Virus record (IMG/VR): IMGVR_UViG_2802429219_000013
Reading direction: 5' to 3' (one strand)
Origin: a virus
Taxonomy: Duplodnaviria > Heunggongvirae > Uroviricota > Caudoviricetes
DNA: 6,888 nucleotides
A program made the position numbers and the translations under genes. The number at the start of each line of letters is the position of its first letter. Position 1 is the stretch's first letter. Positions 220 to 6,888 of this stretch are shown here, in pieces. The notes below the pieces were generated by a model that ran no database searches, was not told the DNA's origin, and saw nothing but the letters and a program-made list of their open reading frames with translations.

Positions 220-342
220 TTAAATGATGCGCTTACCTTTATGCGCCGATGTGGTTTTATCCTGCTGCTGTATCGCCTGCGTCGTTTTCTGCAGCGTGCC
301 GTAAATGCCTTTCGGTTTTCGGTTAATGGTCAGCTTTGTCAT
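220..342 (-). CDS. Hypothetical small basic protein (40 aa)
   Basis: ATG at 342 (minus strand) preceded by AGGGGAAAG with ~4 nt spacing; ORF MTKLTINRKPKGIYGTLQKTTQAIQQQDKTTSAHKGKRII ends with TAA at 220-222. Lies 36 nt downstream of the ssb stop, same strand. Below the ORF-track length cutoff; no recognisable family. Confidence 0.3.
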   Translation of the reverse strand: MTKLTINRKPKGIYGTLQKTTQAIQQQDKTTSAHKGKRII

Positions 343-1037: not shown

Positions 1038-3161
1038 TTAATCTTCTTCGCTTTCAGGCTGGAACATCAGCACGTAAAAAACATGCTGCTTCCCCCCAAT
1101 CCTGCCGAGCGCCTTTTTCTTGTAACGGCGATCGTTACCCGCTTCCAGCATTCCGGCAGCACTCAACGCGCGGGCAAAGTGAGACGGATTAAATCCCTGT
1201 GCTATCTCACCCTCAAATACATGCGGGAACGTGTAAAAACGGAACTCGTCATCTTCGTTTCTGATACTCCCCTTTCTGTATCCGGCAAGCTCTTTAATCG
1301 GTAAATCACGCTCGTCGGTGTTGGGCCACGGAAGGTATCTGCTGAATCCAAACGACGCTAAAAAAGCCTCTGCCTGTTCAACCATCTGTTTAAACTCCCT
1401 GTTACCCGTGCCGAATTCCTTCACCCAGGCATTAAAATTATGCTGAATGGCATCGCGGCACGCCTGAACATCCCAACCAGTAATATGGACGGAAAGCACC
1501 AGCGCCGACTCCAGCATGGCGAATCGTTCCCCCACACGGTGAACCTGTTCGCCGTAGCTCTCCGGTATCAGGTTGCGCCACCGTTCACGGCATGCCCTTA
1601 CCGTGTCCTTTGCCTCCTGCTGGTGGTCTGCCAGCCATTTAACCCACTCACGCCCAGCCGCCCCGTGATTTTCTGTCCAGGCATCTTTTAACGCGTCTGC
1701 GTGCGCCTTTCCGGTGCTGTATTCGTGAAATTGCGTGGCTTTTTCCATCGGAACGTTAAGCAGGCGGACAAGCTGCCCCGCTTTGACTTTTATCCCCTCC
1801 GTTTTGAGGAATGTTTCAACGTCCATTTCTCCGGTACTGATTGCCACCGTTCGCCAGTGTTTGATCTCCCGGTTGCCGCCGTCCTTCGCTCCCTGTAATT
1901 TCCCGGAACCGTTAAACAGCGTATAAGCCGATGTGGACACCTCCCGCGCGTTTCCGGCCTGACCTATTTCATCCAGGGGTAATAGCCCGTCATTGTGCGC
2001 CTCTGCCTCGTTGGCGATACCTAACGCCGTGCCGTACCAGGTCAGCCGTTGTGCGTCCGGCTCTCCCCATAAACTGGATGCGATGTTCTGCGTTGTGGTC
2101 TTACCTGCCGATGACTGTTCGAAAAGATGTACCCCGAAGCCGTCAGCACCCACCAGCCCGATTAATGGTGCGGATAACGATACCGCCACACCCAGCATCA
2201 TGGACGGATTACCACCAGCCAGTCGCGCCACGGTATCGCGCCAGCCATCCGCCGTTCCTGCCACGGAATAGCCATTAACGGCAGCCGTTTTTCCGGTAAA
2301 CAGGATCGGTTTTTCAGACTCACCAATGACTGAACCGTCCGGCATGATGTACGCACCAAAATGCCAGCCCGTTGTTGTGCTTAACTGCCATTCCTCATGG
2401 TTTCCGCTTAACTGCATCCAGTCAGCCAGGATAGCCCTGTATTTGCCGTTGGTTGTCACATTCAGTCCGTGGTCTTTCAGCAGCCGCCAGCCGTCACGGT
2501 CGCCAATGCCACCGCACGGAACCGCCATTGTGATGACTTCGTGGTTTGCAGGTTTCTTCCAGCGCATCACGCGGTAATGCTCTTTGCCGATTGTCCCCGT
2601 TCCCAGTAGTTCAAGCGGGGAGCATAACCACGTCTCAGGCCGGATAATTTCGCCTGACTGCTTGTCAACTTTGGGCGTTACCCAGAAAACACCATCGGCG
2701 CGACTTTCAACGCGGGGCTTTAATTCATCATCGCCCTGGCTTTCTGTGATTTTTTTCTTTAAGGGCAACACCAGACTTTCCCCGCGCTCGTATTCGTCTT
2801 TCAGTCGGGCAAGCTGTGGTGTCCAGTCCTCCAGTAAATCGCCGTTCTCGTCACAAAAACAGGCTTCCTTAACACCAGCCGCTGCCAGCAGGGTTTCAAT
2901 CTGTAGCGCCAGTTTGTCATCCAGTTTTCCGGCACGTCTGACGATGGCGCGTGACCGACCATCATCCACAATACGCAGGTTTTCCAGATTACCCAGGTCA
3001 CGCCGTCCGAGATAAACAGGTGGTATTTTGTCGCCGCGCTTTCTGGCTTCTCCGCCCTGCATGTAATGCTCTGCGTGGCTGTATGCGTCATCCCCCGCAA
3101 AAATCACTGCATCCTCGCCTTTATCTTTCGGTAACAGTTTTACGTTCGGTGCCAGTTTCAT
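1038..3161 (-). CDS. Primase/helicase-like replication initiation protein (P4 alpha-like / DUF927-type, assignment from memory) with P-loop-like SAGKTT motif
   Basis: 707-aa ORF, by far the longest in the window. Start ATG at 3161 overlaps the upstream ORF's stop (ATGA) and is preceded by GGGGAAAGG. Contains a P-loop-like motif FEQSSAGKTTTQ near aa 350. Position between the regulatory module and an iteron origin matches replication proteins of int-alpA-pri type satellites. Family call not verified by search. Confidence 0.9.
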   Translation of the reverse strand: MKLAPNVKLLPKDKGEDAVIFAGDDAYSHAEHYMQGGEARKRGDKIPPVYLGRRDLGNLENLRIVDDGRSRAIVRRAGKLDDKLALQIETLLAAAGVKEACFCDENGDLLEDWTPQLARLKDEYERGESLVLPLKKKITESQGDDELKPRVESRADGVFWVTPKVDKQSGEIIRPETWLCSPLELLGTGTIGKEHYRVMRWKKPANHEVITMAVPCGGIGDRDGWRLLKDHGLNVTTNGKYRAILADWMQLSGNHEEWQLSTTTGWHFGAYIMPDGSVIGESEKPILFTGKTAAVNGYSVAGTADGWRDTVARLAGGNPSMMLGVAVSLSAPLIGLVGADGFGVHLFEQSSAGKTTTQNIASSLWGEPDAQRLTWYGTALGIANEAEAHNDGLLPLDEIGQAGNAREVSTSAYTLFNGSGKLQGAKDGGNREIKHWRTVAISTGEMDVETFLKTEGIKVKAGQLVRLLNVPMEKATQFHEYSTGKAHADALKDAWTENHGAAGREWVKWLADHQQEAKDTVRACRERWRNLIPESYGEQVHRVGERFAMLESALVLSVHITGWDVQACRDAIQHNFNAWVKEFGTGNREFKQMVEQAEAFLASFGFSRYLPWPNTDERDLPIKELAGYRKGSIRNEDDEFRFYTFPHVFEGEIAQGFNPSHFARALSAAGMLEAGNDRRYKKKALGRIGGKQHVFYVLMFQPESEED

Positions 3162-3934: not shown

Positions 3935-4136
3935 GTCTCACCCCCTGAATATTCGCGTTAATCATTCCGGCACGCTCTGCGAGTTCCTGTAATGATTCCC
4001 TTGTTGCGACAATTGCTTCATCTGGCAGGTGGTAATTACACACCACGCGACCTTTATCCACATTGACCAGTAGCTGCCCGGTGAATTTCTCACGAAACTG
4101 AACGCGGTTAAGGTCGGTAAGTGACAGGTTAATCAT
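3924..4136 (-). CDS. Hypothetical small protein (70 aa)
   Basis: ATG at 4136 preceded by TCAGGGGG with 6 nt spacing; C-terminus ...ANIQGVRHVQ is encoded by the junction element. No family recognised. Confidence 0.55.
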   Translation of the reverse strand: MINLSLTDLNRVQFREKFTGQLLVNVDKGRVVCNYHLPDEAIVATRESLQELAERAGMINANIQGVRHVQ

Positions 4137-4332
4137 GGTGTACCCCCTGACGAATACGGGCGGCGAATACCATCACGCAGCCATCAGGAGATTGCTGGCG
4201 TGCTTCCTGTTCGCTGGTGGCCTCGATGTGAATCACGCGCGGTTGTGCGGTGCCCAGGGCGATAAAACGCCAGATGTATTTATTCAGGTTGTGCGAGTCC
4301 CGCCCTTGCGGGTGTGTGGTATGATTTAACAT
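4129..4332 (-). CDS. Hypothetical small protein (67 aa), first gene of the leftward operon
   Basis: Retained 3' part of the implausible 306-aa track ORF 4129-5049. The internal ATG at 4332 is preceded by GAGGT with ~4 nt spacing. C-terminus ...ARIRQGVHHD again comes from the junction element. The antisense + ORF 4135-4329 lacks an RBS. Confidence 0.45.
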   Translation of the reverse strand: MLNHTTHPQGRDSHNLNKYIWRFIALGTAQPRVIHIEATSEQEARQQSPDGCVMVFAARIRQGVHHD

Positions 4333-4428
4333 AGCTACCTCGATACTCTCGTTATCGTTGGTGGTTAGAAGCCCGTTGGTGTTGGTAGCGCCTGCGGGCT
4401 TTGTCTTTTCATCGATTACCTTAATAAA

Positions 4429-4510
4429 GGTGTCAGCCACTATACTAGTAATAGGTGTCAGCCACGTCAATAGTGTTTTTCCATTTTCTTGTGTGTATAC
4501 TGTCAGCCAC
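4429..4510. promoter_or_regulatory. Divergent promoter/operator region with three direct repeats of (G)GTGTCAGCCAC
   Basis: GGTGTCAGCCAC at 4429-4440 and 4454-4465, ACTGTCAGCCAC at 4499-4510. Two TATACT -10-like hexamers (4441-4446, 4496-4501) abut the repeats. A candidate leftward promoter on the minus strand has -35 TTGACG (rc of 4465-4470) and -10 TAGTAT (rc of 4442-4447) with a 17-nt spacer. The candidate rightward -10 at 4496-4501 overlaps repeat 3 and lies about 30 nt upstream of the RHH gene ATG. Confidence 0.5.
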
Positions 4511-4531
4511 CTAATAACAAGGGAATCAGAT

Positions 4532-4711
4532 ATGGCAACGAAAGCAGTTAATGGAAAATCAAAAAAACTTGAGGCACGAGTACCCCATGCAATAGCTGAC
4601 GCTGTAGAAAATTTAAAGGAAGAAGGCGAAAGCACTGGGCAATTTATCGTTTCGGCACTTGAAGGTGAGATCAAACGCCGCCAGCGGCGCAAGGCCAAAG
4701 AGCAGGAATAG
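4532..4711 (+). CDS. Small DNA-binding regulator, ribbon-helix-helix-like (59 aa); candidate repressor of the element
   Basis: ATG at 4532 preceded by AAGGGA about 8 nt upstream. MATKAVNGKSKKLEARVPHAIADAVENLKEEGESTGQFIVSALEGEIKRRQRRKAKEQE has a basic N-terminus, a short beta-strand-like KKLEARVP segment followed by two predicted helices, and a basic tail, consistent with an RHH (Arc/CopG/MetJ-like) fold. The track ORF 4358-4711 was trimmed because its 5' extension runs through the operators and promoters. Confidence 0.6.
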   Translation: MATKAVNGKSKKLEARVPHAIADAVENLKEEGESTGQFIVSALEGEIKRRQRRKAKEQE

Positions 4712-4808
4712 CCAACCAGCAAGCCAGCACACTGATCACATTGCCCACCAGCCGCAAATGTGGCATTGTTGGCGATGCGTTCAAGTTTGATTTGCCGTAA
4801 TACCCACT

Positions 4809-4840
4809 GGCGACCCTTTGCGGTCGCCTTTGTTTTGCTT
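4809..4840 (+). terminator. Rho-independent terminator (likely end of the RHH regulator transcript)
   Basis: Perfect 7-bp stem GGCGACC (4809-4815) / GGTCGCC (4822-4828) with a 6-nt loop, followed by TTTGTTTTGCTT. Confidence 0.55.
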
Positions 4841-4874
4841 GTTATCCGGCAATTGTGGCGCTTCGTCACACGGT

Positions 4875-4883
4875 TGATATAAT
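4875..4883 (+). promoter_or_regulatory. Candidate extended -10 promoter (TGaTATAAT)
   Basis: TG at 4875-4876, one base, then consensus TATAAT at 4878-4883. No good -35, which extended -10 promoters tolerate. Located between two + strand terminators. Confidence 0.35.
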
Positions 4884-4889
4884 TTCCCT

Positions 4890-4960
4890 GCACTGATCCA
4901 TTTTTTTCGCAGCAGGTTAATTGTTCAGAAAGGCGGCTCATTATCGGGGCCGCTTTTTTT
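4890..4960 (+). ncRNA. Candidate small RNA (~70 nt) between the extended -10 promoter and a strong intrinsic terminator
   Basis: Predicted start ~4890 (7 nt after the -10), end at the terminator 4933-4960. No ATG inside the predicted transcript (4890-4960). Purely a prediction from promoter plus terminator geometry. Confidence 0.3.
4933..4960 (+). terminator. Rho-independent terminator
   Basis: Stem GCGGCTC (4933-4939) / GGGCCGC (4947-4953), 7 bp including one G-U pair, with a 7-nt loop, followed by TTTTTTT (4954-4960). Confidence 0.65.
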
Positions 4961-5101
4961 ATGCCTGAAAAACACCAATTTTGTGGTTTTTCAGTTTCAC
5001 CAGGCCGAACGAAGCCCCGCCCCTGTACGGGCGCATATCCAGTATTCATGGTTAGATCTCTGTATTAGTGGATGGGTGGCGGCTGTGTGCCGCCAGCCTG
5101 A

Positions 5102-5290
5102 TTAGTGAACTGCCTCGCAGCTGTCTTTCCATGCCAGAACTTCGGATAAAGACCAGCCAACGGAACGACCGCCGAGCTTACGCCGTGATGGGAATTGTCC
5201 GGCTTTTTCCAGGCGGTACCGACATGAGCGGCTCAGGCCTGTAAGTTGCTGACATTCTTTTTCACGTATAAAGCGATCTGTGCTTAACAC
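5102..5290 (-). CDS. alpA: AlpA-family transcriptional regulator / excisionase-like DNA-binding protein
   Basis: 62-aa ORF; the segment QQLTGLSRSCRYRLEKAGQFPSRRKLGGRSVGWSLSEVLAWK fits the AlpA/phage winged-helix pattern (LTGLSRSTIYRL..G.FP.P.KLG.R.V.W...E...W). Start is GTG at 5290 preceded by AAGGGGGAA with ~4 nt spacing. Same orientation as and downstream of int, as in CP4-57-type elements. Confidence 0.85.
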   Translation of the reverse strand: MLSTDRFIREKECQQLTGLSRSCRYRLEKAGQFPSRRKLGGRSVGWSLSEVLAWKDSCEAVH

Positions 5291-5658
5291 AATTCCCCCT
5301 TTGTTGTTTCTTAAAGAGTCATTGGGTGGATTATTGGGTTGGGTTGTGTCGGATTGTGTCAGGGTGTTTATGGAATGGCAAACACTGGTGGCGGTTGTTT
5401 TACAGAAATGGGGGTAATGAGAATAAAAACTCTTTTAATTCATTGTGGTGCAAAGGCATAAAATTCTGTTTTTACGCATTTTTTACATGTTTTTAAGAGT
5501 GATTCGCCAATGTACAAAAAACCAGTAAAACGACTGAAAATCAACTTTTTAGGGTGTCAGTCAGATGATAATCAAGTTTGTTCCAGATTGTTCGCTGTTG
5601 TTCGTCGTGGTGTCTCGTTGTTTCACGTTGTTTCCGTTCTAAAAAATCGCGAAAAAAA

Positions 5659-6888
5659 TTATATTTCTCTGGCTATTGGCAGTGTGGTTACGTTTTCGTG
5701 AGCACCTGCCAGTATCTCTAATCGCTCTGTCCATATGTCCAACGCACTACGTTTCGCATCGAGATAACGGGAGTGGTTATAGACTCGTTGCATCCCTGGC
5801 ATCTGGTGAGCGGTGAGTTGTTCGACAATATGCGGATCCACGCCTAAATCGTTCAGCATCGTGGTAAACGTGCGCCGTATATCGTGTAGTGACCAGTGCG
5901 GATGGTTTAATTTTTTGTGTGTGAATCTGCCGTATTGCGACACGCTGGCTTCCTGTTTCAGCTCCCCGAGTAATAGCCCTGTGTGTCGGTTCTGCTCCAC
6001 CAGCTGCGTGACGAACGGTAAAATGCTTTCCGGTATTGGCCTGAATATGGCGACCTTCGTTTTGCTGTGTTCTTTCGGTACCGTCCAGAGCATTTCCTTA
6101 AAATCCCACTCCTTGATCTCCGACAGCCTCAGCTCTCCGGTTCGGCAGCCGAACACAATCAGGAGGCGGATTAGTGCGCTGTAGTAGGGTGGGAATATTT
6201 TTTTATCCAGCGCCTGTAATAATTCGCCCAGTTCTTTGTTACTAAGCACGCGTTCGCTTATGCCGGGCTTTTTGCCAACGTCCACTACGTTGAGATCATC
6301 CAGAACGTTACTGACTGCGTAGCGACGTTTACGGCAGAACTTAAGCGCCTGTTTACACGCCTGCATCATGTGACCAGACGTTACAGGGGATTTTTTGCGT
6401 ATCCGGTCAAAACAGGCCAGCCAGTGACGTAACTCGCATTTATCCAGTGGCATGTTACCGATGTGCTGTATGACGTGATTATTAAGGCGGCTTTTCAGGG
6501 AGATGTAATCGACGCGGTTTTCCTTTACGTGCATTTCCAGCCAGTAGCTGATCGCATCGCCCACCGTTACCGGCTTTAGTGCTTCCTGTATGGAGTAATT
6601 AAGCTCATGGCGTGGATTTTTTCCCTCTGCCAGCCATGCGCGACACTGTGCTGCTTTTTCCCTAGCTGCTTTCAGGCTCAGATCTGGATAATTTCCCAGT
6701 TTCAGGCGTTCCGGTGATACCTGGCGTCCTGTTCCTGCCCTGTAGGTGAAATACCAGGTTAATAGGCCGCTGGTGGAGTGTCTGATACTCAGATTTCCAC
6801 CGTCATTAAGAAAGGTGGTTTTTTGGGCTGGTGTGCCGTTGATTTTTCTTAGCTGCGTGTCGCTCAGTTTGTTAAGTGCCCTGCTCAT
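5659..6888 (-). CDS. int: Tyrosine site-specific integrase (P4-type)
   Basis: 409-aa ORF with the tyrosine recombinase catalytic signature in the C-terminal half: R in VFGCRTGELRLSE, HxxR in LHDIRRTF, and the downstream tyrosine region QRVYNHSRYLDAKRS. ATG is at the last bases of the window (6886-6888), so upstream sequence and the att/tRNA side are not visible. Confidence 0.95.
   Translation of the reverse strand: MSRALNKLSDTQLRKINGTPAQKTTFLNDGGNLSIRHSTSGLLTWYFTYRAGTGRQVSPERLKLGNYPDLSLKAAREKAAQCRAWLAEGKNPRHELNYSIQEALKPVTVGDAISYWLEMHVKENRVDYISLKSRLNNHVIQHIGNMPLDKCELRHWLACFDRIRKKSPVTSGHMMQACKQALKFCRKRRYAVSNVLDDLNVVDVGKKPGISERVLSNKELGELLQALDKKIFPPYYSALIRLLIVFGCRTGELRLSEIKEWDFKEMLWTVPKEHSKTKVAIFRPIPESILPFVTQLVEQNRHTGLLLGELKQEASVSQYGRFTHKKLNHPHWSLHDIRRTFTTMLNDLGVDPHIVEQLTAHQMPGMQRVYNHSRYLDAKRSALDIWTERLEILAGAHENVTTLPIAREI

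Follow-up and report, generated by a model that had tools for sequence, protein, structure and literature searches.

What occupies the gap between alpA, the activator gene of a phage-inducible chromosomal island (PICI), and the ribbon-helix-helix (RHH) gene that converges on it? The question arises from a 6,888-nt stretch of viral DNA (IMG/VR record IMGVR_UViG_2802429219_000013), hereafter the window, which as a whole is a 6.9-kb EcCICFT073-type Gram-negative PICI. A sequence-only reading had described in this gap a self-contained promoter-terminator unit for a candidate small RNA of about 70 nt, and the extended -10 element, the terminator downstream, a further terminator upstream and the absence of an ATG are all found where that reading placed them (Table 1). 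Comparison with related islands carries the proposal further. The interval, which we call the cassette, is very probably a small RNA (sRNA) gene, to judge from its conservation as a strand-specific unit from promoter to terminator, and we identify it as a predicted mobile promoter-to-terminator unit of Escherichia coli PICIs of the EcCICFT073 kind.

The region was compared by BLAST with 5426 complete E. coli genomes. Most relatives share part of the alpA-RHH spacer, and the piece common to all match classes is 4908-4960, consisting of a hairpin and the 25 nt that precede it (the core). When this piece was extracted from nine annotated genomes and some 100 IMG/VR contigs, the cassette proved to exist in 22 distinct versions, lying in three unrelated upstream contexts that each contain a good sigma-70 -10 hexamer. 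In family A, to which the window and strain CFT073 belong, GATATAAT is kept in 15 of the 16 unique variants, 24 nt before the core; the exception (L015) has TATAAC, strain A36 alters only the T of the upstream TG, and the -35 region and the bases past the -10 vary. Family B comprises O157, Nissle 1917 and O111, and across its 38 unique sequences conservation starts exactly at ATTGCCCACC and stops at the T-run, with at least three unrelated sequences upstream of the -35 and at least three downstream of the T-run. Its predicted promoter consists of a -35 TTGCCC, a spacer of 17 nt and an invariant TATCAT, followed by a 5' stem-loop and then by the core. In the third context the core has diverged and is preceded by TTCACT-17-TATAAT or TTCACA-17-TAAAAT. 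As a rough inference, the chance of a 5/6 match to the -10 hexamer within the right 20-nt span is about 0.06 per context and about 2e-4 for all three. The core itself is at least about 90% shared between islands whose flanks are unrelated on both sides and whose AlpA proteins are only 23-31% identical, and diverged copies retain ..GTTCACAAAGG adjoining the hairpin. Since the conserved block is bounded by a promoter and a terminator, it looks like an independent transcription unit, in agreement with the self-contained unit first proposed; it is these comparative data, and not the window alone, that place the unit beyond chance.

Within the window, the single TGNTATAAT is not significant by itself, as 0.16 copies are expected by chance and at least one occurred in 29 of 200 shuffles. 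There is no usable -35 upstream of the extended -10, which fits an extended -10 promoter. A generic promoter and terminator scan missed this promoter, which lacks a -35, as well as the second terminator, so that folding and comparison were needed. That the cassette has its own promoter is predicted from the extended -10, from the well-placed -10 in each of the three contexts and from the point at which conservation begins in family B. At the -35 position lies an inverted repeat that is a perfect palindrome in relatives (GTGGCGCTTCGCCAC); in L015 and L081 the repeat is retained with changed letters (TGGTC-ATTTC-GACCA).

Insulation from the RHH transcript, as the sequence-only reading had envisaged, is supported by the folding of terminator 1 (GGCGACC-CTTTGC-GGTCGCC followed by TTTGTTTTG; -14.8 kcal/mol, z -4.1). 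Relatives have either GGCGACC..GGTCGCC or GGCCACC..GGTGGCC, a compensatory G-C to C-G swap with the tail TTTGTTTTGCC kept. As this terminator already ends the RHH transcript 100 nt upstream, a second one after RHH makes sense only if a promoter lies between the two. Upstream of terminator 1, ATTGCCCACCAGCC, the -35 region of the family-B promoter, persists in the window at 4739-4752, with a poor -10 (CATTGT) 17 nt past it; it may be an ancestral leftover, or a second tiny transcript may begin there and run to 4837.

The predicted RNA is about 70 nt long in the window and about 85 nt in the commoner promoter variant. Folding of 4890-4962 (-19.3 kcal/mol, z -2.4) gave a largely single-stranded 5' part followed by the terminator, which begins about 50 nt past the extended -10 and has its stem at 4927-4939/4947-4959, with a GC core at 4933-4939/4947-4953 and the T7 run at 4954-4960. 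On the plus strand terminator 2 folds at -18.0 kcal/mol (z -5.9, equalled in 0 of 200 shuffles), and its reverse complement at -8.3 kcal/mol (z -0.6). Twelve of the 14 hairpin variants are more stable on the plus strand, by 2-6 kcal/mol; both types of hairpin retain U-G pairs, which in an RNA from the minus strand would turn into A-C mismatches, and every T-run lies on the plus strand. These features identify the hairpin as a predicted plus-strand RNA structure. One core is served by two different hairpins, GGCGGCUCC..GGGGCCGC and GGCGCUCC-GGCAAC-GGGGCGC, the CFT073-type hairpin reading GGCGCTCC-GGCAAC-GGGGCGC followed by TTTTTGTTTTT, and one hairpin variant shows a C-G to U-A exchange.

No ATG occurs in 4890-4960, where the sole start-like codon, a TTG at 4921, lacks a Shine-Dalgarno sequence. 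Coding on either strand was rejected because indels in the loop, stem and T-run of relatives (a 22- or 21-nt hairpin, a T-run of 6-7) shift any frame; together with the strand preference of the hairpin, this upholds a non-coding RNA of about 70 nt. Hfq-dependent sRNAs carry a module made of a U-rich stretch adjoining the terminator hairpin and a tail of at least six U. The cassette matches this layout, with UUAAUUGUU directly 5' of the stem and a U7 tail.

We then asked how the cassette is placed relative to alpA, using a covariance model of core and terminator (R1) on 69 IMG/VR loci that had been fetched via the AlpA protein alone. Each of the 69 contained exactly one copy, always downstream of alpA and on the opposite strand, so that the two are convergent; the suggestion that the RNA would be antisense to any read-through from alpA is consistent with this arrangement. 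Three of these loci carry an intact AntA gene after alpA; there the cassette lies right past the AntA stop, is still convergent and is still preceded on its own strand by the RHH gene and a small basic open reading frame (sORF). The cassette was also found behind AlpA proteins 23-31% identical to that of the window. It is the distal element of a rightward module consisting of the repressor-like RHH gene, in most relatives the sORF, and the RNA cassette, which faces the leftward int-alpA(-bro) genes and stands back-to-back with the promoter of the icd-primase operon. In tblastn searches among 97 cassette loci, the sORF was present in 87 and an RHH gene of this type in 76. The sORF (L002 5629-5802 in CFT073; L253 1840-2019) encodes 57-59 residues, is very basic (..RKRRRRK..FLKEYREKRSLQ..), lies between RHH and cassette and has no Pfam match; it is absent from the window, where a terminator and a new promoter replace it.

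With core, hairpin and T-run conserved, the cassette is present in 1062 of the 5426 complete E. coli genomes, in up to four copies, and in four plasmid records, all from E. coli. None was found in sequenced phages, and the matches from a pattern scan of an all-species genome collection were all due to chance and lay in unrelated phyla. Two IMG/VR matches (L031, L077) were likewise rejected as chance; in these, an ordinary terminator comes after the point where an unrelated gene ends. In CFT073 the interval of the cassette is about NC_004431.1 1,380,010-1,380,100, on the strand opposite to alpA (L002 5945-6035). In E. coli O157 Sakai the copy lies at NC_002695.2 1596820-1596873 on the minus strand, in Sp7 (the pchE island) and inside the hypothetical ORF ECs_1576; a guess that placed it at 3.15-3.20 Mb was wrong. 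Sp7 itself, the pchE-bearing 'untypable prophage' of Sakai (L312, NC_002695.2 1594711-1610171), is a PICI of this family that occupies the same roxA-pepT site as EcCICFT073, and its alpA is unannotated in the RefSeq record.

What would such an RNA do? Our best reading, to which we give a probability of roughly 0.45, is an independently transcribed sRNA gene whose product would serve as an OOP-like antisense or insulator RNA against leftward read-through from alpA. In the resident, uninduced island the sRNA would be transcribed from a strong sigma-70 promoter, and both the RNA and the act of transcribing it would oppose leftward transcripts running past alpA. An alpA read-through transcript would pair perfectly with the RNA of about 70 nt, as the 3' end of cII mRNA does with lambda OOP, and pairing could lead to cleavage or decay of the alpA message, while polymerase collision would block read-through into RHH antisense and the replication operon. 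The AlpA positive-feedback loop would thereby be damped and the island kept quiet until a helper phage induces alpA. The only perfect partner of the RNA within the island is the leftward transcript itself. As antisense pairing alone does not constrain sequence, a chaperone or RNase handle, or a target in trans, must be added to this scheme, and the invariant A/U-rich stretch by the hairpin, with the long U tail, could form such a handle.

Several observations weigh against this reading. Its main weakness lies in the core, whose near-constancy across islands that differ in AlpA and operator type is not explained by a cis-antisense function. In the window the RNA stops short of the alpA coding sequence, leaving a 142-nt gap, and is complementary only to read-through or 3'-untranslated RNA, so that any antisense effect needs alpA read-through; the icd-primase operon, moreover, has its own promoter-like site (9/12 consensus matches) flanked by operator-like repeats, and alpA read-through may therefore have no bearing on its expression. 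Only 3 of the 97 cassette-bearing loci contain a FinO-like gene, and an island-encoded FinO/ProQ protein, whose gene is present in A36 and truncated in the window, was rejected as a general partner. The covariation in homologues to which the sequence-only reading had looked is weak: the cassette is conserved in 69 of 69 loci, but the common hairpin, which hardly varies, yields one compensatory pair, and 134 of 500 shuffles did as well. A MAFFT/RNAalifold alignment puts the two types of hairpin out of register. The 60-odd sRNA (EcOnc) peaks obtained by Hfq crosslinking (Hfq-CRAC; Tree et al. 2014) do not include the Sakai copy, although this is weak evidence, as the list stems from one study in two media and covers Hfq-bound RNAs only. 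In the supplements of the RNase E crosslinking study (CLASH) no mention was found of the Sakai region or of the neighbouring gene names.

The main rival is an sRNA that acts in trans, its core (GCAG-NR-GGUUAAUUGUUC) or its variable 5' part pairing with host or helper-phage RNAs; its position opposite alpA would then be incidental or merely supply a terminator. A core about 90% or more identical despite unrelated flanks and AlpA proteins of 23-31% identity speaks for a constraint outside the element, and the A/U-rich stretch adjoining the hairpin with its 7-U tail resembles the layout of an Hfq-type sRNA. The prophage anti-sRNAs AgvB and AsxR (PMC4104026) likewise combine a 3' part that is conserved with a 5' part that varies, and the sRNA of the Vibrio satellite PLE is reported to regulate phage and satellite genes (bioRxiv 10.1101/2022.04.08.487710). 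Searches for a partner nevertheless returned no conserved target within the islands. A 12-bp match at 4136-4125, which takes in the AUG of the ORF that follows icd, was rejected, as it occurs in only 4 of about 95 islands, and a G-U-tolerant scan gave nothing convincing that recurs at a translation start. Lambda cII as a target (an 'OOP mimic') was rejected too: the 10-nt match is one of two lambda 10-mers against 1.6 expected, and the variant of CFT073, an island with lambda among its helpers, does not preserve it. With the Sakai copy lacking an Hfq-CRAC peak as well, we regard action in trans as possible and on the unlikely side.

The remaining explanations are less probable. The hairpin could be a shared or back-up terminator between the RHH and alpA operons, with no separate RNA gene and the -10-like hexamers unused. 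Family B has no terminator between sORF and hairpin, so that termination of the RHH-sORF transcript must fall to the hairpin as well, and the lack of significance of TGNTATAAT in the window and the silence of the Hfq-CRAC and CLASH data on the Sakai copy would be expected. This leaves unaccounted for a well-placed -10 in each of three unrelated upstream contexts, conservation that in family B begins at the -35 and not at the hairpin, and a constant 25-nt sequence that a mere terminator gives no reason to keep; in the window a good terminator is already in place 100 nt upstream, and the hairpin, weak on the minus strand, would be a poor one for alpA. We consider this explanation distinctly improbable. 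Still less likely is a function of the core as DNA, either as a site bound by some protein of the host or the island or as a recombination 'boundary sequence' for module exchange, even though the core sits exactly at a junction of exchangeable modules and the oop promoter region of lambdoid phages has been annotated as a boundary sequence (Sf6). A single site would not serve AlpA types that differ by about 70%, and the core does not follow the operator type. A DNA site also explains neither the promoter conservation, the plus-only G-U pairs and the T-run nor the exchange of one hairpin for another that has kept the shape. An immunity RNA of the P4 CI or P1 c4 type is the least probable of all. 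In phage P1, icd is the partner of c4, and an icd-like gene does lie downstream here. C4- and IsrK-type RNAs, furthermore, occur after alpA in some Gram-negative PICIs (PMC10111431). The cassette, however, gave no match to C4 or IsrK at E values up to 10 with lax filters, and the RNA would come from the strand opposite to the operon to be controlled, from its own predicted promoter and not by processing of a leader. The same RNA moreover recurs across islands of different operator types. The analogy with P4 CI drawn in the sequence-only reading thus holds as a concept and fails in family match, strand and specificity.

No Rfam family, C4 and IsrK included, matched the window, 4700-5110 or 4120-4720 in these searches; a hit to STnc50 (E 0.83) was dismissed as noise from a generic terminator match. 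We found no mention of the core sequence in the literature searched and no description of such an RNA in the publications on PICIs that were consulted. EcOnc22/23/24 (about 85 nt, three copies) were rejected as the same RNA, as they lie in tail-gene regions and lack the core. Esr41 lies on SpLE1, and the Pas sRNA preprint makes no mention of alpA or PICIs. A CFT073 transcriptome paper reports island genes c1498-c1501 as up at 37 C, and its tags could not be mapped to the cassette. The probable RNA gene in the PICI control region is thus unannotated and we found no publication describing it, while small RNAs of mobile elements are already known as a kind.

The surrounding genes identify the element. 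The window has int, alpA, a Bro/regulatory zone and primase/SSB in one direction, which is the definition of a PICI (PMC6092414, PMC10111431), and relatives carry capsid or packaging genes. Its control region (4130-5300) is 97% identical to that of E. coli A36 and related to EcCICFT073 of strain CFT073. The RHH gene, which carries the same YlcI/YnfO annotation in the near-identical A36 and in CFT073, is the sole plus-strand gene among those listed; int, alpA, the Icd-like gene, DUF4222, primase and SSB are all on the minus strand.

Table 1. Features of the window in and around the cassette
Feature	Position	Strand	Details
Integrase	5659-6888	minus	
alpA, PICI activator	5102-5290	minus	Pfam Phage_AlpA, E 3e-18
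AntA/Bro-type gene relic, first 16 codons MNTGYAPVQGRGFVRP	5002-5049	minus	intact in L253
Intrinsic terminator 2	4927-4960	plus	13-bp stem including A:U extension, 7-nt loop, T7
Conserved single-stranded core CGCAGCAGGTTAATTGTTCAGAAAG	4908-4932	plus	25 nt
Predicted primary transcript, about 70 nt	4890-4960	plus	from promoter geometry and terminator; 5' end placed 7 nt past the -10
Extended -10 TGaTATAAT (TGATATAAT)	4875-4883	plus	sole TGNTATAAT in the window
Inverted repeat GTGGCG-CTT-CGTCAC	4855-4869	none	at -35 position of the RNA promoter
Intrinsic terminator 1, predicted end of RHH transcript	4809-4837	plus	generic scan and folding
YlcI/YnfO-family RHH gene	4532-4711	plus	NCBIfam NF041551, E 4e-17
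DUF927 primase	1038-3161	minus	
DUF4222 gene		minus	
SSB gene		minus	

A minus-strand ORF of 306 aa (4129-5049) spans the cassette region, and only its residues 258-301 match the Icd-like model. This ORF is a composite artefact that strings together relic AntA/Bro codons, sequence antisense to the RNA and to RHH and, at its end, the Icd-like domain; the true Icd-like gene lies at about 4129-4332 on the minus strand. RefSeq often calls the equivalent stretch an 'Icd-like pseudogene' because the composite ORF ends in a real Icd-like domain, and elsewhere covers it with hypothetical proteins such as ECs_1576 in Sakai; these spurious annotations can now be corrected. The AntA/Bro relic has its intact counterpart in L253, a 266-aa AntA gene starting MNTGYTPVQGRGFVRPE (Pfam AntA, E 2e-23). 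The cassette abuts the truncated gene in the window and begins directly past the stop codon of the intact gene in L253. At the other end of the island, a 174-aa ProQ/FinO-family gene adjoins SSB in A36 (L001 530-1054). At 234-342 (minus strand) the window is identical to its first 109 nt and then diverges completely, leaving a 40-aa ORF; the gene is truncated or replaced in the window.

Upstream of the RHH gene, TGTCAGCCAC occurs as three exact direct repeats (twice as AGGTGTCAGCCAC) at 4431-4440, 4456-4465 and 4501-4510. They bracket a promoter-like site (TTGACG-17-TAGTAT, 4442-4470, minus strand) facing the icd-primase operon, overlap the likely start region of the divergent RHH gene and look like a putative operator set for the RHH protein. 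The repeats of relatives differ, being AGGTGTGGCCCAC in CFT073 and TGTGTGCGCACA or GGTAATTACCATGT in others, which suggests, on the letters of the repeats, distinct immunity types. Binding of the -35 palindrome of the cassette by the same protein was rejected, since the operators vary between islands and the palindrome does not. On the alpA side, an imperfect inverted repeat (CTGAAAAACACCAA / TTGTGGTTTTTCAG, 4965-4994) lies directly past the RNA terminator; in relatives its outer CTGAAAA/TTTTCAG arms are kept and its centre changes. A GC hairpin (GGGTGGCGGC / GCCGCCAGCC, 5074-5098), conserved with the alpA-side module, lies directly past the alpA stop and has no U-run on either strand.

AlpA of EcCICFT073 is a helper-induced, self-activating master activator, and no repressor is known for Gram-negative PICIs (PMC6092414). 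It is an attractive if rather doubtful idea that the cassette, the RHH gene and the operator repeats together form the missing 'off switch' of these islands, acting in cis or in trans. In the cis version, a constitutive OOP-like RNA that is the same across immunity and AlpA types would set the threshold of the AlpA feedback loop; in the trans version, the invariant core would act on a shared host or helper-phage RNA. If this were so, one universal RNA would control the induction of a satellite family found in a fifth of E. coli genomes. A very widespread, unannotated, probable RNA gene and an RHH gene with operator-like repeats sit exactly between alpA and the replication operon, and they do so in the model island EcCICFT073, in Nissle 1917 and in O157 (Sp7/pchE). 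The interest of the RNA gene lies in its ubiquity, in its place within a model satellite's control region and in the question of how these islands are silenced. Work is also under way to engineer PICIs into delivery vehicles and diagnostic tools, for which an unrecognised regulator in the control region is of practical interest.

Among known small RNAs the closest analogue is OOP of phage lambda, a 77-nt RNA transcribed from pO and antisense to the 3' end of cII, whose action is RNase III dependent. Like oop, the cassette is, as predicted from its sequence, a self-contained sigma-70 promoter-terminator unit of about 75 nt, placed head-on to a regulator gene and between that regulator and the replication genes. 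Both contain, at the same position, TTGTTCAGAA followed by a 7-bp GC hairpin with a U-G pair and by T6-7 AT. Across the complete lambda genome R1 scores highest on the 3' part of oop (38601-38647), with 14.8 bits and an E value of about 0.05, a marginal score that owes much to the terminator, and oop of phage 24B reached 10.8 bits (E 0.6). The shared 10-mer is not kept: it is different in oop of other lambdoid phages, and in diverged cassettes TTCGCAAGG or TTCACAAAGG takes its place. Because the score is marginal and the 10-mer varies among both oop genes and cassettes, we treat OOP as an analogue and not as a relative. The two also differ in reach: lambda OOP overlaps the cII coding sequence, whereas the RNA of the window ends at 4960, 142 nt short of the alpA stop at 5102, a gap of about 27 nt in the Nissle/O111 type.

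Set beside P4 CI and P1 c4 (Rfam C4, RF01695) and their IsrK-type relatives in PICIs, the cassette RNA is likewise a small RNA of a phage satellite, encoded between an alpA/vis-like gene and replication genes, and the idea of an RNA that keeps the element quiet is common to both. CI, however, is cut from a same-strand leader transcript and acts on seqA/seqC, causing termination; in some Gram-negative PICIs, CI-like RNAs are picked up by the C4 and IsrK models in the stretch that follows alpA (PMC10111431). The cassette RNA, by contrast, has its own predicted promoter and lies opposite to alpA and the icd-primase operon (69/69 loci); being the same across islands of different operator, or immunity, types, it would not be an element-specific immunity RNA of the P4 kind. 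AgvB, AsxR and other convergent EcOnc sRNAs of O157 (PMC4104026) are, like the cassette, short mobile-element RNAs in convergent orientation at module junctions, and in AgvB and AsxR, too, the 3' part including the terminator is conserved and the 5' part varies (PMC4104026). Unlike the cassette, they lie in the late regions of lambdoid prophages and are abundant Hfq ligands, and Rfam scans gave no sequence relation. For a satellite sRNA that regulates both satellite and helper genes, the reported sRNA of the Vibrio cholerae satellite PLE (bioRxiv 10.1101/2022.04.08.487710) offers a precedent, from an unrelated element in an unrelated host.

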